Part shown: one piece after another, positions 5,053 to 28,580 of the stretch
How the letters are laid out: the number at the start of each line of letters is the position of its first letter
How positions within the stretch are numbered: the first letter of the stretch is position 1
NCBI GenBank assembly: GCA_035495415.1
Contig: DATJFY010000071.1
Span: 1,257 to 65,256, forward strand
DNA from: Verrucomicrobiia bacterium
Lineage (GTDB): Bacteria > Methylomirabilota > Methylomirabilia > Rokubacteriales > CSP1-6
DNA length: 64,000 nucleotides
Direction: 5' to 3'
Made by a program: the position numbers and the translations under genes
The notes under the pieces: model-generated
The model's database searches: none
What the model saw: the letters and a program-made list of their open reading frames with translations, nothing else
Told to the model about the DNA's origin: nothing

Positions 5053-5859
5053 ATGGGCTCACTCGACGGCAAGGTGGCGCTGGTGACCGGCGCGGGCCGG
5101 CTGCGGGGGATCGGGCGGGCCACCGCGCTCGCCCTCGCCGACCTCGGCGCCGACGTGGTGGTGACGGGCACCGGCCGCGATCCCGCTACCTATCCCGAGG
5201 ACGAGAAGAAGATCGGCTGGCGCGACGTCGAGAGCACCGCGGAGCAGATTCGCGGGGCGGGCCGCCGCGCCCTCACCTTCGTGGGCGACGTGAGCCGGGC
5301 CGAGACCATCCAGCGTCTGGTGCAGTCCACGATGGAGGCGTTCGGGCGCATCGATATCCTCGTCAACAACGCCGCCTATCCACGCGGCAACGACCGCGTG
5401 CCGCTCCCCGATCTCGACGAGGCCATCTGGAGGAAGGTGCTCGACATCAAGCTCACCGGCGCCTTCCTCGCCTGCAAGCAGATCGTGCCCCTCATGGTGA
5501 AGCAGAAGTGGGGGCGCATCGTGAACATCTCCTCAATCGCGGGGAAGCGGGGCAGCGCCAACACCGCCGCGTACAACGCGGCCAACTTCGGAATCCAGGG
5601 CCTCACCCAGTCGCTCGCCCAGGAGATCGCGCGGCACGGGATCACGGTGAACGCGGTGTGCCCCGGCACCATCGCCACCGCGCGCATGGACGTGCTCGGC
5701 CGCGGCGAGGGCTGGCAGAAGCACCTCGATCGCATTCCGGTGGGGCGCGCCGCCACCGACGAAGAGGTTGCCGGCCTCGTGGCGTTCCTCTGCTCGCCCG
5801 CCGGCGCGTTCATCAACGGACAGTCCATCAACATCTGCGGCGGCGTGGTCATGTGGTGA
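5053..5859 (+). CDS. Short-chain dehydrogenase/reductase (SDR) family oxidoreductase
   Basis: GKVALVTGAGRLRGIGRA Rossmann motif, NNAA, NISSIAG...AAYNAANFG, VNAVCPGTIAT. ATG at 5053 within ORF 4732..5859. Confidence 0.9.
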   Translation: MGSLDGKVALVTGAGRLRGIGRATALALADLGADVVVTGTGRDPATYPEDEKKIGWRDVESTAEQIRGAGRRALTFVGDVSRAETIQRLVQSTMEAFGRIDILVNNAAYPRGNDRVPLPDLDEAIWRKVLDIKLTGAFLACKQIVPLMVKQKWGRIVNISSIAGKRGSANTAAYNAANFGIQGLTQSLAQEIARHGITVNAVCPGTIATARMDVLGRGEGWQKHLDRIPVGRAATDEEVAGLVAFLCSPAGAFINGQSINICGGVVMW

Positions 5860-5867
5860 GCGGGCGG

Positions 5868-5886
5868 CCCTCGTCTCGGCCATCTG
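5868..5886. repeat. Left copy of 19-bp direct repeat CCCTCGTCTCGGCCATCTG (putative target-site duplication)
   Basis: Identical 19-mer occurs at 7335..7353, immediately outside both IS termini. Confidence 0.75.
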
Positions 5887-7334
5887 TCGCTGCTCAGTGA
5901 CTAGGTCCTCCCTCGCTGCGACGTGAAAAGGTCCTCCCGGTTCGCAGTGCGTGCAACTGAATGTCGCGCGCCTTCTCGCGCACCCAGGGATGGGTAGGCA
6001 GCGGGCGACGGCCAGTGTGCCTGGGGGGCGCCAGCCGGGGCAAGCGCTGGGGCAGTCCACGCCGCCGCCGCGCGGCGCGGGGCCGGCGGCGGTCGTGACT
6101 GGGGGACCGGCGGGGCTTGAGGACGAAGTCAGGCCCTGGGGAGGGCGTCTGCCCGCGCAGCACCCCGTCGTGGACGACGATCAGGCGGCCATCGAGGAGT
6201 TCGCGCACTTCGACGGTGACGCCGGCGTAGGCGCGCCGGCCAGGGAGCTGCACGAGGCGGGCCCCGAGCCGCACCGTGTTATCCCGCGCGACGACCCGGC
6301 GATAGCCACAGCCCAGGAGGAGGGCCAGATCACGCGGTGGCCGGCGCCACACGGCTCGGGGCTGCGCGGGCGGTTTGCCGAAGCGGCGATTGAAGTCGGC
6401 GATGAAGGCGGGCAGGTAGGCCTGCGCCGCCGTCACGGTGCGAATGTCGCGGAGGCGCAGCTCGCTCACCAGCCGATCTTGCAGCGTGCCCCAGAGGCGC
6501 TCGATGCGGCCCTTGGCTTGGGGCGAGTGCGCGGCGATATAGCCGATGGCCAGCGTCTGCAGCATGCGGCCCAGATGGGTCGGGGCCTGGGCCCCCGCCA
6601 GCTGCTCCTCCACCGACCAGTGCAGGTCGTTGCGGACTAGCAGATTGAGCCGATCGCCATAGACGGCCAGCGGCAGGCCGTGCGTGGTGAATACGTCCCG
6701 GAAGAGCGTGGCGTAGCCGTGCACATCCTCGGCCGGCCGAAACTGCAAGGCCAGGATCTCGCTCGTGGCGTCATCCACGGCCCCGAGCAGCACCAGGTCG
6801 GGGCCGCGCGCCTCGAGCCACCGGAAGGGGCTGCCGTCGATCTGGATCAAGGCGCCGCGGACGGCGGCGGGCACGCGCCGATGGCGGGCCCGGCGGGCCT
6901 GTCGCGGCCGGGCCGGGGCCAGCCCCAGGTGCCGCCGCAAGCGCCGCACCGACTCCCTCGACACGGTCAAGCCGTGCTCCTCCCGCAGTTTCTCGGTCAG
7001 GTGGGTGTCATTGAAGCCCACGTAGTGGGTCGTCATCAGGCGGTGGACGGCCGCCCGCACCGTCAGCGGCAAGCGCTGGGGCGAGGGGCGTCCCCGATTG
7101 CCGTGCGTGAGGGCGGCCGCGCCGCCCGCCTCGAAGCGACGTTTCAGACGCCGGACGTGTCTCACCGTCAGCCCCAGGGCCGCGGCCACCTGCGCGTTCG
7201 TCAACCGCCCGCTACACAGCCCCTTCAACAGCCCCGGTCGATGCAGTTCCTTTCGGCTCAACGTGAAGGTCTCCATGGTGAGAGGACCTTTTCACGGAGT
7301 AGTTAGGGGAGGACATTTTCACGTTGCAGCAGCA
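5887..7334 (-). mobile_element. Intact insertion sequence (~1.45 kb), rve/DDE transposase, IS481/ISNCY(IS1202)-like
   Basis: Imperfect ~50-bp terminal inverted repeats. Each holds two GTGAAAAGGTCCTCC-like subrepeats: left GCTGCTCAGTGACTAGGTCCTCCC..GCTGCGACGTGAAAAGGTCCTCCC; right reverse complement GCTGCTGCAACGTGAAAATGTCCTCCCC..CCGTGAAAAGGTCCTCTC. A single transposase ORF fills the element. Flanked by a 19-bp direct repeat. Confidence 0.8.
5894..7276 (-). CDS. DDE (rve/integrase-core) transposase with N-terminal HTH
   Basis: 460-aa ORF. HTH region LTNAQVAAALGLTVRHVRRLKRRFEAGG. DDE candidates IQIDGS, AVYGDRLN, SPQAKGRIERLWGTLQ. Confidence 0.85.
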   Translation of the reverse strand: METFTLSRKELHRPGLLKGLCSGRLTNAQVAAALGLTVRHVRRLKRRFEAGGAAALTHGNRGRPSPQRLPLTVRAAVHRLMTTHYVGFNDTHLTEKLREEHGLTVSRESVRRLRRHLGLAPARPRQARRARHRRVPAAVRGALIQIDGSPFRWLEARGPDLVLLGAVDDATSEILALQFRPAEDVHGYATLFRDVFTTHGLPLAVYGDRLNLLVRNDLHWSVEEQLAGAQAPTHLGRMLQTLAIGYIAAHSPQAKGRIERLWGTLQDRLVSELRLRDIRTVTAAQAYLPAFIADFNRRFGKPPAQPRAVWRRPPRDLALLLGCGYRRVVARDNTVRLGARLVQLPGRRAYAGVTVEVRELLDGRLIVVHDGVLRGQTPSPGPDFVLKPRRSPSHDRRRPRAARRRRGLPQRLPRLAPPRHTGRRPLPTHPWVREKARDIQLHALRTGRTFSRRSEGGPSH

Positions 7335-15456: not shown

Positions 15457-16146
15457 ATGGACGGCGTCCACGATCTCGGCGGCATGCACGGATTCGGCCC
15501 GGTGGAGCGAGAGGCGAACGAGCCCCCGTTCCACGAGCCGTGGGAAGCCGCCGTCTACGCCATCATGCGCGCGAGCCTGAGCACCGGGCAGTACAATCTC
15601 GACGAATTTCGTCATGGCGTCGAGCGGATGGACCCCGCGCACTATCTCCGCTCCGGTTACTACGAGCACTGGCTGGACGGTATCGCCCGTGTCCTGGTCG
15701 AGAAGGGCGTTGTGGCCAGCGACGAGCTCGCCGCGCGCACTGCGTTCTTCGCGGATCATCCCGACGCCCCGGCGACCGCGGCGGTGCGGGCCATGCCCGC
15801 CACGCCGCCTCCGCGCATCCGGTGGCTCGCCCTCGACTCCGAGCGCCCGGCCACGCAGGCGCCGCGCTTCGCGGTGGGCGACGCCGTCATCACGCGCAAC
15901 ATCCATCCGACCGGACACACGCGGCTCCCACGATATGCGCGGGGCAAGCGAGGCATGATCCACCGCCAGCACGGCGCCCATGTCTTCCCCGACAGCAACG
16001 CGCACGGCGGGGGCGAGCAGCCGCAGACGCTCTACAGCGTCCGCTTCGACGCGCGGGAGCTGTGGGGGCCCGCGGCGGAGCCGAACCAGCACGTCTACAT
16101 CGATCTCTGGGAGCCGTATCTCGAGCCGGGAGCCGCCCGTGGGTAA
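15457..16146 (+). CDS. nthB: Nitrile hydratase beta subunit
   Basis: 229 aa. Hallmark N-terminus [16 protein letters not shown]. Followed directly by the alpha subunit. Confidence 0.9.
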
Positions 16147-16735
16147 GAACCATCCGAACGTCGACAAGTACGTGGTCTCGCGCGTGCGCGCGCTGGAATC
16201 CATCCTCCTCGAGAAAGGCATCCTGCCGCCCGACGCGGTGGACCGCGTGATCCAGCGCTACGAGGCCGACACCGGGCCGATGATCGGCGTGCGCGCGGTG
16301 GCCCGCGCGTGGATAGACCCGGCCTACAAGCAGCGGCTGCTCCAGGACCCGCGAGGCGCCCTCAAGGACTTCGGGCTCGACTACGAAGCGCTGCGCGTGG
16401 TCGAGAACACCCCGGCGGTGCACAACGTGGTCGTCTGCACCCTCTGCTCGTGCTACCCGTGGGCGGTAATGGGCCTTCCGCCCACCTGGTACAAGATGCC
16501 GGCCTATCGGTCCCGTACCGTGGCGGAGCCTCGCCGGGTACTGGCCGAGTTCGGGCTGAGCATTCCCGAGTCGCGCGAGATCCGCGTGTGGGACTCGAGC
16601 GCGGAGCTGCGCTACATGGTGCTGCCGGAGCGGCCCGCGGGCAGCCAGGCGATGGGCGAGGCGGAGCTGATCCCGCTCATCACGCGAGACGCCCTCATCG
16701 GCGTCGCCGACGTCCGGCTGTCCTCTCCGGCCTGA
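16139..16735 (+). CDS. nthA: Nitrile hydratase alpha subunit, cobalt type
   Basis: Metal-site motif [11 protein letters not shown] (Thr and Tyr variant is typical of Co-type). GTG at 16139 overlaps the beta stop (GTGGGTAA). Confidence 0.9.
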
Positions 16736-16746
16736 TCGCGCTCCCG

Positions 16747-17613
16747 ATGGGCTACGAGCGCCGCCGCAACCTCGTCATCCGTCCCGACGGCCGCCTCGTC
16801 AACGTCGCGCGGCCGCGCGGGCAGCTCTTCGTGTGCGCCAGTGGCTGCTGCTGCGGGCGCACCGAGGATGGCTTCGCCCCCGTCCCGACCGCGCTGTTCC
16901 ACGGCGAATGGGAGCGGCGGCGCCTTCGGAATCTCGTGCATCTCACCCTCGGCGGCTGCCTGGGGCCCTGCGCGCTCGCCAACGTCGCCCTGCTGCTGTT
17001 CGACGGCCAGGCGCAGTGGTTTCACTCGATGAATCGCGACGCGCTCGTCCTCGAGCTCTACGATCATGTGGAGCGGATGCTCGACGCGGACGGCGTGCTG
17101 GCCCCGCCGCCCGCCCTCGCCCCGTATCACTTCAGCGGCTCGGCGTGGCAGCCGCGGCCGGACGGGCTGCCCGTCGACGACCATCGCCCGCGGCGCCGGC
17201 CGTGCCCGTCCGAGCGTGGGAGCTCGAGCCTCGCCGAGCACACCTGCGCCGCCGGGCCCCCCGCGGACGAGTCCGGCGAGGGACGCGTCGAGCGGCTCAT
17301 CGCGGACATGAGCGGTGCGGCCGCGATGCCGCGCCGGAACGGTGAGCTGGTGTTTGCCGAGCCCTGGCAGGGGCGGGCATTCGGCATGGCGGTGGCGCTG
17401 TCCGAGAATGGCGCGTTCTCCTGGGAGGAGTTCCGTCAAGCGCTGATCGCGGAGATCGGCGTCGCCGAGCGCCGCGAGGGGCCTTTCGAGTATTACGAGG
17501 TGTGGCTCGCGACGTTCGAGCGGCTCCTTGCCACGAAGGGCCTCGTTTCCAGCGGCGAGCTCGACGAGACCGCATATCAGTTCGAGTTCGGCGAGCGCGA
17601 CGAGGTCTTCTGA
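16747..17613 (+). CDS. Nitrile hydratase accessory (activator) protein fused to an N-terminal Cys-rich thioredoxin-like-ferredoxin-type domain
   Basis: 288 aa. N-terminal part: GQLFVCASGCCCG...LTLGGCLGPCALANV. C-terminal part: ELVFAEPWQGRAFGMAVALSENGAFSWEEFRQALIAEI...YYEVWLATFERLL, resembling NHase beta-homolog accessory proteins. Confidence 0.75.
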   Translation: MGYERRRNLVIRPDGRLVNVARPRGQLFVCASGCCCGRTEDGFAPVPTALFHGEWERRRLRNLVHLTLGGCLGPCALANVALLLFDGQAQWFHSMNRDALVLELYDHVERMLDADGVLAPPPALAPYHFSGSAWQPRPDGLPVDDHRPRRRPCPSERGSSSLAEHTCAAGPPADESGEGRVERLIADMSGAAAMPRRNGELVFAEPWQGRAFGMAVALSENGAFSWEEFRQALIAEIGVAERREGPFEYYEVWLATFERLLATKGLVSSGELDETAYQFEFGERDEVF

Positions 17614-17733: not shown

Positions 17734-17749
17734 TGGCACCCCGCTTGCT
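17734..17749 (+). promoter_or_regulatory. Sigma-54 (-24/-12) promoter TGGCACCCCGCTTGCT
   Basis: Matches TGGCAC-N5-TTGCW with exact GG-to-GC spacing. Lies 49 nt upstream of a small ORF with a strong SD. Confidence 0.6.
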
Positions 17750-17797
17750 CCTCCTGGGGGCATGTGGCAGTCAACCGGAACCCCCAAGGAGGCCGTC

Positions 17798-17899
17798 ATG
17801 GCCAAGAGAATGAACGTCGCGAAGCTCTGCTGGACGGTGATGGCGCTGGGCGCGGTGATGTTCCTCACGCACTCGGCCATCCTCGCCTTCGCTCGCTAA
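17798..17899 (+). CDS. Small (33 aa) single-TM membrane protein
   Basis: MAKRMNVAKLCWTVMALGAVMFLTHSAILAFAR. SD AAGGAGG lies 7 nt upstream of the ATG. GC3-rich codons. Followed by an intrinsic terminator. Confidence 0.55.
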   Translation: MAKRMNVAKLCWTVMALGAVMFLTHSAILAFAR

Positions 17900-17943
17900 G
17901 ACCACTCCGGGTCGCGCCACCGCCGCGTGACCTGCGCTCGATA

Positions 17944-17989
17944 CCAGGCGCCGACCACTCGCCACAGAGTGGCGGCGCCTGGACGTTTT
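17944..17989 (+). terminator. Rho-independent terminator-like hairpin
   Basis: ~16-bp stem with one bulged A (CCAGGCGCCGACCACTC / GAGTGGCGGCGCCTGG), 6-nt loop, then ACGTTTTA. Confidence 0.6.
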
Positions 17990-18049
17990 ACGGCGCTGGA
18001 ACCCCGACAGCAACATTGGCAACTCCCTGGAATCGTTGGACGCCCTCTC

Positions 18050-18065
18050 TGGAACGCCACTTGCT
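18050..18065 (+). promoter_or_regulatory. Sigma-54 (-24/-12) promoter TGGAACGCCACTTGCT
   Basis: Correct GG-N10-GC spacing with TTGCT at -12. The motif ends 26 nt upstream of the kinase ATG at 18092. Confidence 0.5.
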
Positions 18066-18091: not shown

Positions 18092-19552
18092 ATGCGTCTG
18101 GCGCCCAAGATCTTTCTCGTGTCGGTGCTGGCGATCCTGCTTCTCGGCGGGGTGTCGGCCTGGAGCATCGTCGCGGTGAGCCGGCTCGTCGAGGTGAACC
18201 GTGACATCGCCACCCGCGCGGTGCCGGCCATCGAGATCGCGAGCGGGCTGCCCGAGGCGTTCCGCCGCCTCGTGCGCCTGGAGGCCAAGTACCTCGTGCT
18301 GCGCGACCGCGCCTATGCCGACCTGTGGAACGAGCGGGCCACGCGTGTGGCAAGCGAGCTCGACCGGCTCGGGACCCTGCTCGTGACGCCCGAGGAGCTC
18401 ACGTGGCAGCAGAGCGCGGCGTCCGCCTTCGCGGCCTACCGCGAGCACGTGAGCCACGAGCGCGTGCTCGTGGGCCGGGGCGAGATCGAACGCGCCCAGC
18501 AGCTCTCGGAGCGCGCCGCCCGGGAGGCCGCCGAGCTGGCGGAGACGAGCGTGGTCAAGCTGTCCGCGGCGTCGAACGCGGGGCTCGGGCGCGCCCAGGC
18601 CGATGCCGCCGCCCTTGCCTCGCGCACCTGGACCACGGTGATCATCGCCTTCATCGCGAGCCTCGCGGTGGCGATCATCGCCACCGCCATCGTGGCGGTC
18701 CGCATGACGCGCTCGCTGCGCCAGCTCTCCACCGCCACGCGCCAGCTCGCCGAGGGCGCTGCGACGGGGCCGCTGCCCATCGACCGCGGCGACGAGATCG
18801 GCGACGTCGGTCGGGCGTTCAACCGCATGGCGGAGCGGCTGAAGGAGGTCGACGCGCTCAAAGAGGATTTCTTCTCGCAGATCTCGCACGATCTCCGTAA
18901 CCCGTTGACGGGCATGCGGGGAGCCGCCCAGCTCCTGATTCAGGGCCGGACCGGGGGCGCCCTCCCGCCCCGCCAGCTCCAGATGGTCCGGGTCATCGAC
19001 GACAGCGCCGGGCGCATGCTGGCGATGGTCAACCAGATCCTCGAGTTCACCCGACTCCGCGCGCACTTGATGCCGCTCGAGCGGAAGCCGGTGGACCTCG
19101 CCAAGCTCGTGGCGCGCGCGCTCGACGAGTTCCATCCGCAGGCGGAAGCGGCCGGGGTCGCGCTCTCCACCACCACGAGCGGCGCCGACTTCACCGTGTA
19201 CGGTGACGAGGCGGGCCTCATGCGCGTGGTCACGAACCTGGTGGGGAACTCGCTCAAGTTCACGCCGCGGGCGGGGTCGGTGACCGCCCAGGTGCGGGAC
19301 TGGGACGCAGAGGTCGAGCTGCGGCTGACCGACACCGGCGAGGGAATTCCGGCGGACGCCCTGCCGCGCATCTTCGACGCCTACCGACAGGCGCACGCGG
19401 GCCGCAAGGGCTCGGGGCTCGGCCTCGCGGTGGTGAAGGGCTTCGTCGAAGCACACGGCGGCCGCGTCGAGGTCGAGTCCGATCTGGGCAAGGGAACCAC
19501 GTTCGTGGTGACGCTGCCGCGCTCCCTGCCGCACCTGGAAGCCGCCGCGTGA
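18092..19552 (+). CDS. Sensor histidine kinase (TM, helical periplasmic domain, TM, HAMP, HisKA, HATPase)
   Basis: 486 aa. Two TM segments. HAMP (RQLSTATRQLAEG...GDEIGDVGRAFNRMAERL). H-box FFSQISHDLRNPL. G-boxes DTGEGIP and GSGLGLAVVKG. Confidence 0.9.
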   Translation: MRLAPKIFLVSVLAILLLGGVSAWSIVAVSRLVEVNRDIATRAVPAIEIASGLPEAFRRLVRLEAKYLVLRDRAYADLWNERATRVASELDRLGTLLVTPEELTWQQSAASAFAAYREHVSHERVLVGRGEIERAQQLSERAAREAAELAETSVVKLSAASNAGLGRAQADAAALASRTWTTVIIAFIASLAVAIIATAIVAVRMTRSLRQLSTATRQLAEGAATGPLPIDRGDEIGDVGRAFNRMAERLKEVDALKEDFFSQISHDLRNPLTGMRGAAQLLIQGRTGGALPPRQLQMVRVIDDSAGRMLAMVNQILEFTRLRAHLMPLERKPVDLAKLVARALDEFHPQAEAAGVALSTTTSGADFTVYGDEAGLMRVVTNLVGNSLKFTPRAGSVTAQVRDWDAEVELRLTDTGEGIPADALPRIFDAYRQAHAGRKGSGLGLAVVKGFVEAHGGRVEVESDLGKGTTFVVTLPRSLPHLEAAA

Positions 19553-20107: not shown

Positions 20108-20764
20108 CTATCGGAGGGAGTGCGCGAAGGCCAGGTAGCGGAAGCTCACTTCCTCCGCGTAACGATCCCCCGGGCGGTTCTCGGTGGCCTTGTCGGGATT
20201 GCGGTTGTACGCGCGAAGGGCGGTCGCGTTGAACCCGTAGCGCGTGATCTGCCAGCGGAGGTAGGCGGTGCCCACCCGCACGTTGAACTTGGGATCGGCC
20301 AGTGAGCCCAGCGAGGCGTAGGTGCCGTTCTTGCCCATCTCGGGCGGGGTGTAGTCGAGGCCCAGCCGCTTCACCACGAGCTCGGCGGTGGAGGGCATCA
20401 GCTGCATCAGCCCGATCTCGCCCGACTTGCCGATCGCGCCGGGGTTGAACTGGCTCTCCTTGTCGGCGATGGCCAGGATGATGCGGAAATCGATGTCGGC
20501 GGCCTGGCTCACCTCCAGCAGCGTGTGCGGAAAGCCGGCGAACTCCCGGATGGTCGCCTGCGGGTTGCGCTCCACGATGAGCGCGGTGATCTTCTGCTCC
20601 ATCTCGGCCCGGCCCTGATCGGCGCGTTCTTGAGCGAGGCGGCCCTGCGTGAGGCCGCCCATATAGAAGAGCGGGACGGCGGCGACGAGAAGCACAACGC
20701 CCAGCGCCTGCAGCCACGTCCCGCGAGTCTCGACGAACCGACGAGCCAGCGCGATAGCCTGCAT
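20108..20764 (-). CDS. Membrane-anchored lytic transglycosylase (SLT domain)
   Basis: AIADKESQFNP ... GEIGLMQLMPSTA ... AYNRNP. AGGAGG lies 10 nt upstream of the ATG at 20764. The longer ORF start at 20800 lacks an SD. Confidence 0.85.
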   Translation of the reverse strand: MQAIALARRFVETRGTWLQALGVVLLVAAVPLFYMGGLTQGRLAQERADQGRAEMEQKITALIVERNPQATIREFAGFPHTLLEVSQAADIDFRIILAIADKESQFNPGAIGKSGEIGLMQLMPSTAELVVKRLGLDYTPPEMGKNGTYASLGSLADPKFNVRVGTAYLRWQITRYGFNATALRAYNRNPDKATENRPGDRYAEEVSFRYLAFAHSLR

Positions 20765-20839
20765 GATCACGAGTCCTCCTGCCGACTGGATTTTGTTCAT
20801 GGTGTGCGCGGTGTTACCGAGCTGTCAGTCCAGTAGAGT

Positions 20840-20855
20840 GGCAAGCGGTGTGCCA
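20840..20855 (-). promoter_or_regulatory. Sigma-54 (-24/-12) promoter TGGCACACCGCTTGCC, minus strand
   Basis: Perfect TGGCAC-N5-TTGC. Lies ~75 nt upstream of the SLT start. The site is near-palindromic, so the + strand reads TGGCAAGCGGTGTGCC at 20839..20854. Confidence 0.55.
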
Positions 20856-22002: not shown

Positions 22003-23403
<1,401 letters not shown>

Positions 23404-23622
23404 CACTGCACTTCCCTCTGCCGATGCACTGCCAGCGGGGCAGGTGCCTCAAGTACGGTTCATCATTGGCGATTTTGCCTCCGAGCCCCCCTCTTCTCTC
23501 GCGACCTGCCCCGCCGATCGTGCAGGGAGGGCGGCGGACTCGCGACTCCGCGTCGAGAAAGGTGTCGGGAAAGGCGCACGGAAACGCGGAGTTTTTTCGC
23601 CTCGGGCCGACGGCCGCGCTCA

Positions 23623-23638
23623 TGGCGGCCGAATTGCT
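23623..23638 (+). promoter_or_regulatory. Sigma-54 (-24/-12) promoter TGGCGGCCGAATTGCT
   Basis: Correct GG-N10-GC spacing with TTGCT at -12. Lies ~80 nt upstream of the small ORF at 23717. Confidence 0.55.
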
Positions 23639-23716
23639 CTATTCTCCCCCTCGGGCAGTGGATCTCATTGGGAGGTCTCCTCGCCCGGCGACTCATTCCT
23701 CATGGGAGGGAACGCA

Positions 23717-23854
23717 ATGACGAAGCTCGTGGCCGTGCTGGCGATTCTCGCGTCGTTCCTGCTGGTGGCGCCGGTGATCGAGTCGGGTACGTCGGAGTCC
23801 AGCCAGATCTTCCTGGCCATCGGTAATGCGGACGGCGGCGCCGGAGGGGACTAG
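23717..23854 (+). CDS. Small (45 aa) protein with N-terminal hydrophobic segment (signal peptide or TM) and acidic/Gly tail
   Basis: MTKLVAVLAILASFLLVAPVIESGTSESSQIFLAIGNADGGAGGD. SD GGGAGGG lies 6 nt upstream. GC3-rich codons. Confidence 0.55.
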   Translation: MTKLVAVLAILASFLLVAPVIESGTSESSQIFLAIGNADGGAGGD

Positions 23855-25523
23855 TCTCACGCCACCTCGTCGGGGAGCGGCCGGCCATTCCCCTCGGGCC
23901 TCCGCACGAGCTTGGAGGGGCTTCGGCCCCTCTCTGCTCTTGATGACCCTCGTGCTGCTGGCCGGGCCCGCGGCGCCGCCCGCGCACGCCGAGGAGCCGA
24001 CCGAGAACGCGGCTCGTGAAGTCGGCGTTTACCGGAGACCGCTCGGGAACGATCCCGCCACGCTCGATCCGGTCCGGGTCAGCGATCTCTACGGGCGCTC
24101 CGTCACCGAGCAAATCTTCGACGGCCTGGTCCAGTTCGACCAGACGCTGACGATCACCCCCGCCCTCGCCCGCTTCTGGCGGGCCTCGCGGGACGGGCTC
24201 GTGTGGACGTTAACGCTACGCCAGGGCATCAAGTTTCACCATGGCCGCGAGCTCACGTCCGACGACGTCGTGTTCTCGCTCAGCAGGATTCTGGACCCGA
24301 AGTCTCAGAGCGGCGCGGCCGATCTCTTCTCGAGCATCGAGGGCGCCCAGGAATTTCGCGAGGGGCGAGCGCCCACGGTGAGCGGGCTCCAGGCGCCCGA
24401 CCGCTACACGGTGCGGGTGATATTGCGCGAGGCGTCCACGCCCTTCGTGTCCGTGCTGGCCCTCGGGCACGCCAAGATCGTCCCGCGCGACATGGTCGAG
24501 AAGCAGGGCGCCGCCTTCGGCCAGCATCCGGTGGGGACAGGTCCGTTCAAGTTCGTCCGGTGGGAGCGCCGCAAGGAGATCGTGCTGTCGGCGAATCGGG
24601 ACTACTTCGAGGGCCCGCCCCGGCTCGCCCGGGTCATCTATCGTATCTTTCCCGGCGAGCTCAGCGACGTGATGTGCCGGGAGTTCGACCGGGGCGAGCT
24701 GGACGAGAGCCCGGTTCCCCCCGTCTGCCGGAACAAGGTCAATGACGCGCGGTATCAGTACGTCCGCCGCGTCACGTTCAGCGTCCGCTTCTACGGTCTG
24801 CAGACCCGCATGAAGCCGATGAGCGATGTCCGGGTGCGCCGCGCCATCGCCCACGCCATCGATCGGAACGCGCTTCTCGACGACGTGTTCACCGGCCGCT
24901 TTCAGCCCGCGCCCGGAATCTTGCCGCTGGGACTGCCGGGCTACAATCCGAACTTGAAGCCGCTCGGCTACGCCCCCGCGCGGGCGCGCGAGCTCCTTCG
25001 CGAGGCGGGACATCCGGACGGGCGGGGACTGCCGACCATCGTGTTCTGGTCGGGGGCGAAGAGCGAGCGGCTCGAGCGCGAGCTGGACACGGTGTCGCGG
25101 CAGCTCGGCGCCGTCGGCATCCGGACCGAAACGCGCTACGAGACCGATTGGCCGACCTTCTCGCGAGAGGTGAACGAGGGCAAGCTGCCAATGTTCATCT
25201 ACGCGTGGTACGCCGACGTGCCCGACCCCGACAACTTCCTCTTCCGGCTCTTCTACTCGCGGAGCCCGCGCAACCTCACCGGGTACTCCAACGCGATGGT
25301 GGACGGCCTGCTGATCCAGGCGCGGGGCGAGAAGGAGCTGGCCCGACGGATGGATCTGTACCGGCGGGCCGAGCAGACGATCCTGAACGACGCACCCATC
25401 ATCCCCATCTGGCACTACCCGTTCGAACGGCTCTTCCAGGGCTACGTGCGCAGCGTGGAGGTGAACGGGCTCGGCGATCCCTATATCCCACTGAGGAAGA
25501 TATGGTTGGAGGAGCGGCGATGA
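23826..25523 (+). CDS. Family-5 (peptide/nickel-type) periplasmic substrate-binding protein, no adjacent permease
   Basis: SBP5 pattern (DPATLDPVRVSDLY, FDGLVQFD, GIKFHHGRELTSDDVVFS, GTGPFKFVRWE, ANRDYFEG, VRRAIAHAID). Signal-like LLLMTLVLLAGPAAPPAHA. Start is uncertain: 23826 overlaps the small ORF; the alternative is 23943. Confidence 0.85.
   Translation: MRTAAPEGTSLTPPRRGAAGHSPRASARAWRGFGPSLLLMTLVLLAGPAAPPAHAEEPTENAAREVGVYRRPLGNDPATLDPVRVSDLYGRSVTEQIFDGLVQFDQTLTITPALARFWRASRDGLVWTLTLRQGIKFHHGRELTSDDVVFSLSRILDPKSQSGAADLFSSIEGAQEFREGRAPTVSGLQAPDRYTVRVILREASTPFVSVLALGHAKIVPRDMVEKQGAAFGQHPVGTGPFKFVRWERRKEIVLSANRDYFEGPPRLARVIYRIFPGELSDVMCREFDRGELDESPVPPVCRNKVNDARYQYVRRVTFSVRFYGLQTRMKPMSDVRVRRAIAHAIDRNALLDDVFTGRFQPAPGILPLGLPGYNPNLKPLGYAPARARELLREAGHPDGRGLPTIVFWSGAKSERLERELDTVSRQLGAVGIRTETRYETDWPTFSREVNEGKLPMFIYAWYADVPDPDNFLFRLFYSRSPRNLTGYSNAMVDGLLIQARGEKELARRMDLYRRAEQTILNDAPIIPIWHYPFERLFQGYVRSVEVNGLGDPYIPLRKIWLEERR
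23915..23932 (+). other. GC-rich stem-loop GAGGGGC-TTCG-GCCCCTC (UUCG tetraloop)
   Basis: Perfect 7-bp stem, followed by TCTGCTCTT. Lies 60 nt after the small-ORF stop. It would be inside the SBP CDS if that gene starts at 23826. Confidence 0.35.
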
Positions 25524-27430
25524 GCGCGCGCGCCCTCTTCGACCGGGTGGGCCGCCGCTTCAACTCTCTCCACGCCCGGCTGCTCGCCGGCACCATCCTC
25601 ATCCTCCTCGTGGTGATGGCCGGGGTGATCGCGGTCGTGGAGTACCGGCAGCGCGTGGCCATCATCGGCGAAGTGCTCCGGCGGGGCGAGGTCATCGTGC
25701 GCGACCTCGCGGCGATCTCGTCCACCCCGCTGCTCCTCTACAACTTCACCGCCCTCGAGCAGAACGTGGATCGCGTGCGGGGGAACACCGACGTGGTCTA
25801 CGCGGTGGTGCTGGACGCCGACGGGAAGGTGGCGGCCCACAGCCGCCGCCCCGACCTGGTGGGGAGCGTGCTCGCCACGCCCCTCGATCGGGCCGCCGCC
25901 GCGAGCGAGACCCTGCTCGTCCAGGAGAGCCAGAGCCGAGGCGCCGCGGTGTACGACTTCGCGGTGCCGGTCCTGATCGGCGCCCAGCGCTGGGGCACCG
26001 CGCGCGTCGGGCTCTCCAAGAAGCGGATGGAGGCGCAGATCCGCCGGACCCGTATCGAGCTGGCGGGCCTGACCGTGGTGACGCTGCTCGTGAGCGGTCT
26101 CGCCGCCGCGCTCGTCGCCCGCGCCATCTCCCGGCCGGTGCGGGAGCTGGCGGCGGGCGCGGAGGCCATCGCGCGGGGTGACCTCGACCAGCGCATCGCG
26201 GCGACCGGGTTCGGGGAGATCGGCCAGCTCGCGGTGGTCTTCAATCACATGACGGCGCAGCTCCTGCAGCAGCGCCACGATCTCGAGGCCACCCACGAGT
26301 CGCTCCGGGAGCGCTTCGAAGAGGTCGCCGACCTCAAGAGCTACACCGACAGCATCCTGGCCTCGATCACGAGCGGCATCGTGACCCTCGACCTCGATGG
26401 CCGGGTCGCCACCGTGAACCCCGCCGCCGAGCTCCTCACCGGCCTCTTCGCCGGCGAGATCGTGGGCCGGTACTGCACCGAGGTCTTCGCCCACACCCCC
26501 GGGGTCTCGGAGATCCTCATGGAGGCGCTCGCGAGCCGGGCGGGACTGGGCCACGTGTCCCTGAGCCTGCGGCGCCGGAACGGTACCGCGGTACCGGTGG
26601 AGATGAGCACGGCCCCGCTGCGTGGGCTGGAGGGGAAGGACCTCGGCGTGGTCGGGGTGTTCCGCGACGTGAGCCATGTTCGCGAGCTGGAGGGCCAGCT
26701 GCGCCGCTCCGACCGGCTCGCCGCCCTCGGCACCCTCGCCGCCGGGCTCGCCCACGAGATCAAGAATCCCCTCGCGTCACTGCGCACCTTCACGCGGATC
26801 ATCCCCCGCAAGTTCGAGGACGCCCGCTTCCGGGAGACGTTCATGCGGGTCGTGCCCCACGAGCTCGAGCGGATCAACGGCATCGTGGAGCAGCTTCTCG
26901 AGCTGGCCCGGCCGATCCGACTCCGGCCGGCTCCCCTCACCGTGCCGGGCGTGCTGGACCGGGTCCTCGAGCTGTACGCCAACGAGCTCGAGGCCAAGGG
27001 GATCGTGGTGACGCGGGAGTACGCGCGCGAGGTGCCGTCGATCACCGCCGATCCCGAGCGTCTCTACGAGGCGTTCGTCAACCTGGTCAGCAACGCCATC
27101 GCCGCCATGGCGCCGGGGGGTCGGCTCACCGTGCGCACCGCCTGGCACCGCCCGGGAGAGCCCGTGGGGCGCGGCACGGCGGGGCGCCGTGTGCGCGTCG
27201 AGATCGAGGACACGGGCAGCGGCATCTCAGCCTCGGAGGCCGACAAAGTGTTCGATCCCTTCTTCACCACCAAAGCGGAGGGCACGGGCCTCGGCCTCGC
27301 CCTCACGCACAAGATCATCGAGGATCACGGCGGAAGCATCGGCTTCCGGAGCGCGCCGGGCGTGGGCACGGTGTTCACCGTGCTCCTGCCCTTGGCCTCC
27401 GAGCGCGCCGCCGGAGAGCGCGATGTCTAG
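25520..27430 (+). CDS. Sensor histidine kinase, NtrB/AtoS-like (TM, periplasmic domain, TM, HAMP, PAS, HisKA, HATPase)
   Basis: 636 aa. ATG overlaps the SBP stop (ATGA). H-box LAAGLAHEIKNPLASL. PAS (ILASITSGIVTLDLDGRVATVNPAAELLTG). DTGSGI, GTGLGLALTHKII. Confidence 0.9.
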   Translation: MSARALFDRVGRRFNSLHARLLAGTILILLVVMAGVIAVVEYRQRVAIIGEVLRRGEVIVRDLAAISSTPLLLYNFTALEQNVDRVRGNTDVVYAVVLDADGKVAAHSRRPDLVGSVLATPLDRAAAASETLLVQESQSRGAAVYDFAVPVLIGAQRWGTARVGLSKKRMEAQIRRTRIELAGLTVVTLLVSGLAAALVARAISRPVRELAAGAEAIARGDLDQRIAATGFGEIGQLAVVFNHMTAQLLQQRHDLEATHESLRERFEEVADLKSYTDSILASITSGIVTLDLDGRVATVNPAAELLTGLFAGEIVGRYCTEVFAHTPGVSEILMEALASRAGLGHVSLSLRRRNGTAVPVEMSTAPLRGLEGKDLGVVGVFRDVSHVRELEGQLRRSDRLAALGTLAAGLAHEIKNPLASLRTFTRIIPRKFEDARFRETFMRVVPHELERINGIVEQLLELARPIRLRPAPLTVPGVLDRVLELYANELEAKGIVVTREYAREVPSITADPERLYEAFVNLVSNAIAAMAPGGRLTVRTAWHRPGEPVGRGTAGRRVRVEIEDTGSGISASEADKVFDPFFTTKAEGTGLGLALTHKIIEDHGGSIGFRSAPGVGTVFTVLLPLASERAAGERDV

Positions 27431-28580
27431 GCCGATCATCGACGATCCGCGCATCGAGCGGCACATCGTCCGGTCGGAGGTCATCAGCAAGGTCGCGGGT
27501 GGGGTGGTTCACAACTTCAACAATATCCTGTCCGTGCTGCTCGGGCGCGTGGAGCTCCTGCTCGGGCAGGTTGACAAGGGCGCGGTGGACGCCGGCCAGC
27601 TCCGCAAGGGACTCGTCTCCATCCAGAAGGGGGCCCTCGACGCGGCCGAGCTGCTGAAGCGCCTGCGCGACATCGCGCGGCCCCCGCAAGACGTCGCGTG
27701 CTCCGTGTTCGACTTGAACGCCGCGGTGGCCGACGCGGTGGAGTTCATCCAGCCCCACCTCGTCACCGTTGCCCAGGGCCAGGGGATCTCGGTGCGCGTG
27801 ACCTCGCGCCTCTCCACCGTCGCGGTTCTCATCTCCGGCCAATCGAGCGCGCTCCGCGAGGTGCTGGTCAACCTGATCCTCAACGCCATCGAGGCGATGC
27901 CCGAGGGGGGTGAGGTCAGCGTGGAGACCGCGCGCGAGGGGAGCCAGGCGGTCCTCCGCGTCACCGACACCGGCGTCGGCATACCGGAGGAGGTGCGCTC
28001 GCGCGTCTTCACGCCGTTCTTCACCACCAAGCCGGCGGGAAACACCGGGCTCGGGCTCTCGTCGGCGAAGGATCTCGTGACGAGCCACGGCGGCACCATC
28101 GCGGTGGCGAGCGAGCTCGGCCGAGGCACCACCTTCACCATCGTCCTGCCCTGCGCGGAGAGCCGTCAGCCGCGGGCAGTGGCGCCCGCGGCTCTGCGGC
28201 TGCGCGCGGGCCTGCGGGTCCTCGTGGTGGACGACCAGCGCGAGCTGCGCGACATCCTGCGCGAGTTCCTGAGCGAGCTCGGCTGCCAGCCGACCCTCGT
28301 GGGCAGCGGGAAGGCCGGCCTCGACGCCGTGGAGAGGGAGATCTTCGACGTGGTCCTCACCGACCTGCTCCTGCCCGGGGCGAGCGGGTGGGAGATCGCG
28401 CGCGCGGCCAAGCGGAGGTCGCCCGGCTGTCGTGTGGTGCTCATGTCGGGCAAGGCCATCCCCGACGGGCTGCGCGTGGAGGCCCTGGTGGACGCCACGC
28501 TCATGAAGCCGGTCGACCTCGGCCACCTTCGCACGGTCATCGCCGAAGTGCTCGACGAGCCCTCGCCCTCGCTGAGTTGA
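27423..28580 (+). CDS. Soluble hybrid histidine kinase (HisKA, HATPase, REC) without a recognisable sensor domain
   Basis: 385 aa. Overlaps the upstream kinase by 8 nt. H-box VVHNFNNILSVLLG. DTGVGIP, NTGLGLSSAKD. REC: VLVVDDQ, DVVLTDLLLPGASG, LMKP. Confidence 0.9.
   Translation: MSRPIIDDPRIERHIVRSEVISKVAGGVVHNFNNILSVLLGRVELLLGQVDKGAVDAGQLRKGLVSIQKGALDAAELLKRLRDIARPPQDVACSVFDLNAAVADAVEFIQPHLVTVAQGQGISVRVTSRLSTVAVLISGQSSALREVLVNLILNAIEAMPEGGEVSVETAREGSQAVLRVTDTGVGIPEEVRSRVFTPFFTTKPAGNTGLGLSSAKDLVTSHGGTIAVASELGRGTTFTIVLPCAESRQPRAVAPAALRLRAGLRVLVVDDQRELRDILREFLSELGCQPTLVGSGKAGLDAVEREIFDVVLTDLLLPGASGWEIARAAKRRSPGCRVVLMSGKAIPDGLRVEALVDATLMKPVDLGHLRTVIAEVLDEPSPSLS

Follow-up and report, generated by a model that had tools for sequence, protein, structure and literature searches.

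The 64,000-nucleotide stretch analysed here (contig DATJFY010000071.1 of assembly GCA_035495415.1, from a bacterium of the Rokubacteriales), called the window throughout, encodes at 23717-23854 a small protein of 45 amino acids. By sequence comparison this small open reading frame (ORF) is a genuine, conserved protein-coding gene under purifying selection, and it belongs to a family previously undescribed both in the literature and in family models. Comparison of the flanking sequences supports a conserved sigma-54 promoter, located next to the gene of its activator, as the element that drives the small gene. The genes that follow encode an orphan periplasmic binding protein and sensor kinases. 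With moderate confidence, we read the locus as the regulatory head of a self-contained, Rokubacteria-specific sigma-54 two-component module, whose exported small protein, made in excess, would act on its own binding-protein/kinase sensor. The parts of the module in the window are as follows.

22003-23403, plus strand: sigma-54 activator gene (Pfam Response_reg, Sigma54_activat and HTH_8, corresponding to receiver, AAA+ and Fis-type helix-turn-helix domains)
23425-23442, plus strand: distal candidate activator-binding palindrome TGCACTGCCAGCGGGGCA, 198 nt 5' of the -24 element
23507-23524, plus strand: proximal candidate activator-binding palindrome TGCCCCGCCGATCGTGCA, 116 nt 5' of the -24 element
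23623-23638, plus strand: sigma-54 -24/-12 element TGGCGGCCGAATTGCT, with GG at 23624-23625 and GC at 23636-23637
23704-23710, plus strand: ribosome-binding site (RBS) GGGAGGG, 6 nt 5' of ATG 23717
23717-23854, plus strand: small protein gene, 45 amino acids plus stop, encoding MTKLVAVLAILASFLLVAPVIESGTSESSQIFLAIGNADGGAGGD, supported by homologues, alignment and codon statistics
23914-23933, plus strand: GC-rich hairpin GGAGGGGC-UUCG-GCCCCUCU, the window's short version of a conserved hairpin
23943-25523, plus strand: family-5 (peptide/nickel type) periplasmic binding protein (Pfam SBP_bac_5, E = 2.8e-85), start uncertain
25520-27430, plus strand: membrane histidine kinase (sCache_3_2, HAMP, PAS, HisKA and HATPase), its start overlapping the binding-protein stop (ATGA)
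27423-28580, plus strand: second, soluble hybrid kinase (weak HisKA match, HATPase and receiver domain), with an 8-nt overlap with the first kinase gene

Conservation of the small gene, its promoter and its gene order

A scan with one genome per species yielded 79 loci. Nearly all are from metagenome-assembled genomes (MAGs) of Rokubacteria or Methylomirabilota; one is labelled Acidoferrum, one Actinomycetota, and several carry the label 'uncultured bacterium'. Counts over 71, 62 or 54 loci refer to loci with enough flanking sequence. Contigs L001-L010 are about 100% identical across the region and are thus uninformative on selection. The window's own clade comprises the window sequence (WIN), L011, L012, L013, L017 and L028. 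Short public contigs were considered as transcript assemblies and rejected: the three examined all reach upstream of the small ORF, two of them (L091 and L092) with a large gene there, and they look like genomic DNA.

Protein searches returned 255 homologues of the small protein, nearly all 43-46 amino acids long (range of the family, 41-48) and 65-96% identical to it, and those with a named source come almost exclusively from Rokubacteria/Methylomirabilota. Public assemblies contain gene calls for the identical 45-amino-acid product in 110 index blocks. In the 29 orthologues of exactly 45 amino acids, mismatch rates at codon positions 1, 2 and 3 are 0.24, 0.15 and 0.45, and the synonymous-to-non-synonymous ratio of codon differences reaches 0.84 in the coding frame and only 0.12 and 0.08 in the two others. 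The sequence-only reading, which had named a lack of conservation as fatal to the small ORF, is thus borne out by the homologues, by the coding pattern of substitution and by the fixed gene order described below. So is its ribosome-binding site, GGGAGGG placed 6 nt before the ATG; a purine-rich RBS precedes the first small ORF in 77 of 77 loci.

The family consensus is MTKLxAVLxxLASFLLVAPVIESGTSxSTQxFQAIGNADGGxGGx. The protein consists of a basic N-terminus (MTK), a hydrophobic segment (residues 4-21), a conserved junction (APVIESGT), a variable linker, and the conserved motif F-x-A-[IV]-G-[NT]-A-[DE]-G-G followed by a glycine-rich tail. Nine alignment columns are invariant, and P19, E22, G24, F32, G36, A38 and D39 are among the invariant residues. 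Modelled alone by AlphaFold, the small protein forms one helix over residues 2-40 (predicted local distance difference test score 83), which is uninformative on function.

No Pfam or NCBIfam model matched the small protein, and a profile search of 1.84 billion representative proteins gave only 65 matches, essentially all from the same family. The large matches P0169, P0183 and P0184 were rejected as relatives, being unrelated repeat proteins. One further match, P0174, is a zincin-like secreted protein of 439 amino acids whose last 35 residues (...LVLVAPEPESGTSESSHIFQPVGNAEGGGGGA) match positions 11-44 of the small-protein profile; it may have arisen by gene fusion, by chimeric assembly or by a frameshift in the gene call. 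A literature search on Rokubacteria with sigma-54, and on the combination of binding protein, kinase, sigma-54 and small protein, found nothing relevant. The absence of both a family model and a matching paper agrees with the earlier statement that the peptide module is not a recognised described system.

The promoter element had been described from the sequence as having exact -24/-12 spacing about 220 bp after the activator gene, and this description holds. Within TGGC-N7-TTGC at 23623-23638 the GG and GC doublets are exactly 10 nt apart, the element lies 220 nt 3' of the activator stop (23403), and TGG[CT]-N7-TTGC occurs 61-97 nt (median 71) 5' of the first small-ORF ATG in 75 of 77 loci. 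Between loci the 7-nt spacer changes freely, the footprint that a -24/-12 element would leave, and transcription would start near 23650. Chance would yield 0.49 matches to TGGC-N7-TTGCW in the window, which has just two (17734 and 23623); by itself this is weak evidence. No sigma-70-like promoter was found in 23350-24050, and no rpoN gene was identified within the window. The activator carries GAFTGA at residue 226 and is the sole protein of this kind in the window, as no GAFTGA-like motif was found elsewhere in any of the six frames.

Palindromes of the form TGCAC-N8-GTGCA emerged when upstream regions were aligned at the promoter. The relaxed pattern TGCMC-N8-GKGCA has only two matches in 64 kb, the candidate activator-binding palindromes at 23425 and 23507, with 0.37 expected, and occurs within 230 nt upstream of the promoter in 26 of 76 loci as compared with 12 of 1500 control segments. 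In the relatives these sites cluster about 100-120 and 180-220 nt upstream of the promoter. Other clades have different palindromes here; at six loci (L037, L045, L047, L050, L056 and L057), for instance, the sequence GCCCAG-N4-CTGGGC, often duplicated, is found in place of TGCMC-N8-GKGCA. Such replacement points to co-evolution of activator and binding site between clades.

Gene order around the small ORF is almost fixed. The activator gene lies just 5' of it in 68/71 loci, the binding-protein gene just 3' in 62/62, and the Cache kinase gene next in 53/54, often followed by the hybrid kinase; the small ORF therefore does head an operon of binding protein, kinase and kinase, as had been proposed. 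Beyond these genes the neighbours vary and include ComM/ChlI-like, SLT, Lon, isochorismatase and, on the opposite strand, LivHM-type permease genes. ORF clustering over the 79 loci identified signalling genes only as constant neighbours of the small gene, and neither Opp/Dpp permease or ATPase genes nor maturation, protease or transporter genes recur near the module. Since the outer neighbours vary and no Opp/Dpp genes recur, the conserved unit comprises the activator, the small protein, an orphan binding protein and the kinase or kinases. Two contigs of one MAG (CAZXPE01), L016 and L026, carry distinct module copies with different peptides and binding proteins, and represent either paralogous modules or a bin that mixes strains.

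The binding protein carries a signal peptide of its own (...PAAPPAHA/EEP), and its nearest solved structures are peptide binders: 8upi, HbpA, OppA, DppA, MppA and PrgZ, the enterococcal pheromone-binding protein. An orphan SBP_bac_5 protein encoded beside an sCache_3_2 kinase, with cognate ABC genes lacking in the neighbourhood, is the arrangement of a binding-protein-dependent sensor kinase.

The hairpin, the binding-protein start and tandem copies

In the window, the hairpin lies 59 nt from the small-ORF stop (8-100 nt across loci). GAGGGGC (23915-23921) and GCCCCTC (23926-23932) pair around TTCG, and a G-U pair extends the stem to 8 bp (23914-23933). The corresponding stems in relatives are longer, at 10-19 bp. 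Their best energies have a median of -30.6 kcal/mol (controls, -21.8 kcal/mol), and at 64% of loci the value is lower than the 5th percentile of the controls. Because loop lengths vary, a MAFFT/RNAalifold consensus gave only 5 pairs, and a loop-anchored comparison of own with other arms was used instead. For 41 different hairpins, pairing the two arms of one locus gives a median stem of 12 bp and pairing arms across loci a median of 0 bp, and several base-pair types are seen at every stem position, indicating compensatory changes. The perfect UUCG hairpin described in the sequence-only reading is thus present, but its loop is limited to the window's clade (other clades have GCG, TTC, CTG and others), and it is not a free-standing element, as the stems of orthologues overlap the start region of the binding-protein gene.

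The hairpin does not qualify as an intrinsic terminator: it is followed by CTGCTCTTGATG, with no U tract, and a terminator scan of 23350-24050 was empty. In the relatives the hairpin tails are Leu/Phe codons of the binding protein's signal-peptide core, not U runs. No Rfam family matched the hairpin. In the binding-protein frame its two arms, purine-rich on the 5' side and pyrimidine-rich on the 3' side, translate as [KR]-G-G-x-x-P-P-[LF], and in many loci (L021, L034, L065, L066, L057 and L075) the binding-protein ATG falls within the loop or shortly before the 5' arm. At other loci (L014, L032, L035 and L070/71) the amino acids encoded by the stem change and the pairing stays, which argues that the RNA structure is itself a selected feature over the translation start region. 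In the window's relative L017, the 3' end of the small ORF (GGGGGGACTAG/GAGAG) is repeated about three times directly after the stop (6139-6200), and these repeats account for the displacement of the hairpin to 100 nt downstream.

Intercistronic hairpins such as those of puf in Rhodobacter and of malEFG place a stable stem-loop after a highly expressed small first cistron and before genes needed in smaller amounts. The present hairpin differs from these in that its stem overlaps the start region and signal-peptide coding sequence of the next gene, and it may therefore act on translation initiation rather than, or besides, RNA decay.

The long ORF of the binding-protein gene opens at ATG 23826 and shares 29 nt with the small ORF, and the sequence-only reading had regarded a confirmed start at this position as sufficient to reduce the small ORF to an out-of-frame part of a leader. 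This ATG arises from an AAT codon for Asn37; related copies with Asn use AAC (21) or AAT (5), and an in-frame ATG equivalent to 23826 is absent at every other locus. No product starting there is on record, and public gene calls start the binding protein at the equivalent of 23943. The frame offset between small gene and binding-protein gene varies among 0, 1 and 2. ATG 23826 is accordingly rejected as a conserved start, being unique to this strain, in which it may nonetheless be used. In the window's clade, upstream start codons are not conserved (they are absent in L028), and all six members have an in-frame TTG at or just after the 3' arm, which in the window is followed by ATG (TTG-ATG, 23940/23943). 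On these comparisons a start at 23940/23943 is favoured; the start codon would then come directly after the hairpin, which contains the Shine-Dalgarno-like GGAGGGG.

This geometry raises the question of whether the small ORF is a cis-acting leader, whose translation controls the next gene through termination-reinitiation, melting of the hairpin or SecM/MifM-type arrest, the peptide being incidental. In many loci the binding-protein ATG does lie 8-16 nt past the small-ORF stop, lacks an RBS of its own and is followed by the hairpin; and an N-terminal membrane segment combined with a hairpin masking the next start is the layout of secretion-monitoring leader peptides. Nevertheless, the amino acid sequence is strongly conserved over the whole peptide, the hairpin is found anywhere between 8 and 100 nt past the stop, arrays of up to five copies occur, and, inferring from SecM/MifM geometry, 45 amino acids are too few for the membrane segment to exit the ribosome tunnel before termination. 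We consider a cis-acting leader highly improbable. An arrest peptide of the SecM/MifM/VemP type in particular was rejected in view of the length of the protein (41-48 amino acids), the variable hairpin distance and the tandem copies, the hairpin feature itself being present.

Multiple copies of the small gene are found in 8 of the 79 genomes (L029, L041 and L048, at about 5560-7000; L040, L053, L060, L061 and L073): five have two copies, one has four and two have five. The sigma-54 element is found before the first copy only, and every copy has its own RBS. Spacers of 73-75 nt, near-identical within L041, each hold a 6-7-bp GC hairpin just before the next RBS. Most differences between copies fall in the hydrophobic N-terminal half, with L048 varying in linker and motif as well, and the APVIESGT junction and the C-terminal motif are retained. 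The array-bearing clade is distinguished by a Cys in the motif (GNACDGG), a C-terminal Trp and, at the binding-protein start, no more than a short hairpin. Several of the L029 copies look frameshifted, for which assembly error is a possible cause.

Amplification of this kind could be explained by bulk production of an effector. The sensor would then read an external cue, for example environmental peptides, and the exported small protein would serve as a surface-active, metal-binding, membrane-protective or antagonistic product that does not feed back. The small gene is the only non-signalling gene in the conserved module, two-component systems commonly adjoin their target genes, arrays of 2-5 copies and the hairpin both fit bulk production, and the L048 copies vary in linker and motif like isoforms. 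Against this, the glycine-rich tail is short and anionic and does not resemble known antimicrobial or surfactant peptides; across the 79 loci the small gene has no linked genes for immunity, export or maturation; and its strict inheritance together with a peptide-type binding protein would have to be fortuitous. An effector of this kind is possible, if on balance unlikely.

The small size, the multi-copy arrays with isoform variation and the single Cys of the array clade (GNACDGG...W) also recall precursors of ribosomally synthesized and post-translationally modified peptides (RiPPs) or bacteriocins. Such a precursor would be matured and exported by enzymes encoded elsewhere, and the sensor would read the mature product; family-5 binding proteins do bind peptide-derived metallophores, for example methanobactin via MbnE. 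The RiPP precursor was rejected for want of co-located maturation, protease and export genes, none of which recur across the 79 loci. In addition, the N-terminal part resembles a Sec signal or anchor and not a RiPP leader, and the candidate core is conserved where hypervariability would be expected. Maturation by unlinked enzymes is thus very unlikely.

Sigma-54-like sites elsewhere in the window

Three further sites of sigma-54 type lie upstream of the module.

17734-17990: second sigma-54 unit, with consensus site TGGCACCCCGCTTGCT, RBS AAGGAGG, a 33-amino-acid ORF and a hairpin
18050-18065, plus strand: sigma-54-like site TGGAACGCCACTTGCT, one mismatch from TGGCAC-N5-TTGCW, 26 nt before the kinase ATG at 18092
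20840-20855, minus strand: sigma-54-like site TGGCACACCGCTTGCC, one mismatch from TGGCAC-N5-TTGCW, about 40 nt before an SLT transglycosylase gene (20108-20800, minus strand)

The layout around the small gene had been likened to that of the unit at 17734, and the two do share a sigma-54-like site, an RBS, a hydrophobic ORF and a hairpin. The ORF at 17799-17900 encodes a peptide of 33 amino acids that is nearly all hydrophobic (MAKRMNVAKLCWTVMALGAVMFLTHSAILAFAR), and a hairpin of the 13-bp class at 17947-17979 is followed by TGGACGTTTT, with TTTT. This peptide belongs to a genuine family of 29 homologues at 60-96% identity, narrower than that of the 23717 protein and with no family model. The likeness fails at two points: the kinase that follows has its own sigma-54-like site at 18050, and there are no palindromes of the 23425 type. 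The parallel is thus thematic, a small hydrophobic protein before a kinase, and not a repeat of the same module.

In total, four candidate sigma-54 promoters are found within 6 kb, as against a single activator gene in the window. Farther upstream, at 15980-17613, lies a nitrile-hydratase pair that recurs upstream of the module only in L085. Its alpha subunit has a VCTLCSC metal site, and its second ORF is long, with a Cys-rich start (CASGCCCG) and an NHase_beta_N match at the end.

Possible action of the small protein on its own sensor

In the mechanism that we propose, the phosphorylated activator would bind the palindromes and open the sigma-54 promoter. Sec would insert the small protein into the membrane with a cytoplasmic N-terminus and a periplasmic C-terminus, a topology predicted from its single basic N-terminal residue, its stretch of 18-23 hydrophobic residues and its acidic tail. 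The hairpin would either hold back translation of the binding protein and kinase or mark a stable 3' end of the transcript, and in both cases far more peptide than sensor protein would be made; hairpin and gene arrays alike suggest that such an excess is needed. Being the module's sole non-signalling product, the peptide appears to be its output, and since it would be exported into the compartment of the binding protein and the Cache domain, action on one of these is the simplest reading. In the envelope the peptide could serve the OppA-like binding protein as a ligand and so gate the kinase, or it could modulate the kinase while tethered to the membrane; either action on its own sensor would close an autoregulatory loop. 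A released or tethered ligand of the binding protein is slightly favoured over an MgrB-type modulator of the kinase. The peptide-centred sensing module of the sequence-only reading is plausible on this view and has support in part.

Whether the protein would be released depends on the junction. Its MTK start, 15 hydrophobic residues and PVIES/G, with Pro at -5, Ile at -3 and Ser at -1 before G24, agree in length and at these positions with a Sec signal peptide and would allow cleavage by signal peptidase I at P(-5)-V-I(-3)-E-S(-1)/G. A cut after ...VIES would release a periplasmic peptide of about 22 amino acids. An uncleaved membrane anchor is equally possible in view of the conserved half of the hydrophobic segment and the Tyr found at -1 in some members.

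Several considerations weigh against action of the small protein on its own sensor or against parts of this scheme. The junction lacks A-x-A, Tyr occurs at -1 in some members, and the hydrophobic core is unusually conserved; its periplasm-proximal half appears too conserved for a plain signal peptide, which favours residence in the membrane. The kinase carries a Cache ligand-binding domain of its own, and the sensor may answer to an unrelated cue. An anionic peptide of about 2 kDa would hardly cross an outer membrane, and no exporter is linked, which argues against an intercellular signal. The window's hairpin taken alone is not significant, with a fold z-score of -1.4 and a best 46-nt energy of -24.4 kcal/mol that lies inside the control range (control median -21.8 kcal/mol). 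Finally, the start of the window's binding-protein gene is uncertain, and the relatives compared are MAGs throughout.

Some features of known systems resemble those of the locus. The small protein is comparable in size, predicted topology and proposed autoregulatory logic to MgrB of the enterobacterial PhoQ-PhoP system (PMC2789325; bioRxiv 10.1101/438515), a membrane protein of about 47 amino acids with a short periplasmic tail, induced by its two-component system and acting back on the sensor kinase. Unlike MgrB, the small protein is the first cistron of the sensor operon, under a sigma-54 promoter, always accompanied by a binding protein and open to tandem amplification; the two share no sequence similarity, with no match in Pfam or NCBIfam, and the conserved periplasmic cysteines of MgrB are absent, most family members having no Cys.

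Binding-protein-gated kinases include LuxP-LuxQ and TorT-TorS. An orphan periplasmic binding protein encoded beside a membrane kinase and serving as its ligand sensor is found, as at the present locus, in CBP-ChiS of Vibrio (PMC12704726) and AioX-AioS-AioR (PMC5908839, PMC7565993). In contrast to the present locus, these systems have no co-transcribed, conserved small exported protein at the operon head, and their ligands are environmental small molecules. The response regulator of AioXSR is also a sigma-54 activator, and the Vibrio CBP is also a binding protein of the peptide/nickel type.

In the Gram-positive agr and com loops a ribosomal peptide gene is controlled by the adjoining two-component system, and PrgZ represents capture of a peptide signal by an OppA-family protein. 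The present module differs from these in having no dedicated processing or export protein, in the presence of an outer membrane, and in a binding protein that would signal to a kinase rather than feed an importer; what the locus displays of such a circuit is its genetic wiring, a peptide gene whose promoter is paired with the neighbouring activator. A full autoinduction circuit of this kind in an outer-membrane bacterium would require Sec export, a cut after ...VIES, OppA-type capture, gating of the Cache kinase, phosphorylation of the sigma-54 activator and activation of the peptide's own promoter, and we regard it as doubtful. MlaC and BamD/YbgF-like genes are located nearby, and the outer membrane that they imply makes an autocrine role within the envelope likelier than diffusion between cells. 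If the autoinduction circuit were true, the lineage-specific peptide variants and arrays would be signalling dialects in uncultured soil Rokubacteria.

Kinase-tuning small proteins are known, and so are kinase-gating binding proteins; their conserved, phylum-wide combination under a dedicated sigma-54 promoter is undescribed. If the peptide is a ligand of the binding protein, the module would represent a new peptide-signalling architecture in diderm bacteria, and if it is a modulator, a widely conserved family would join the few small proteins that control kinases. The hairpin offers a natural example of RNA structure and signal-peptide coding sequence constraining each other. The activator, its binding sites, the promoter, the peptide, the hairpin, the binding protein and the kinases form a compact, synthesizable parts list. 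To our knowledge no culture of Rokubacteria exists, and heterologous testing of these parts is therefore one of the few routes to an experimental biology of these bacteria.

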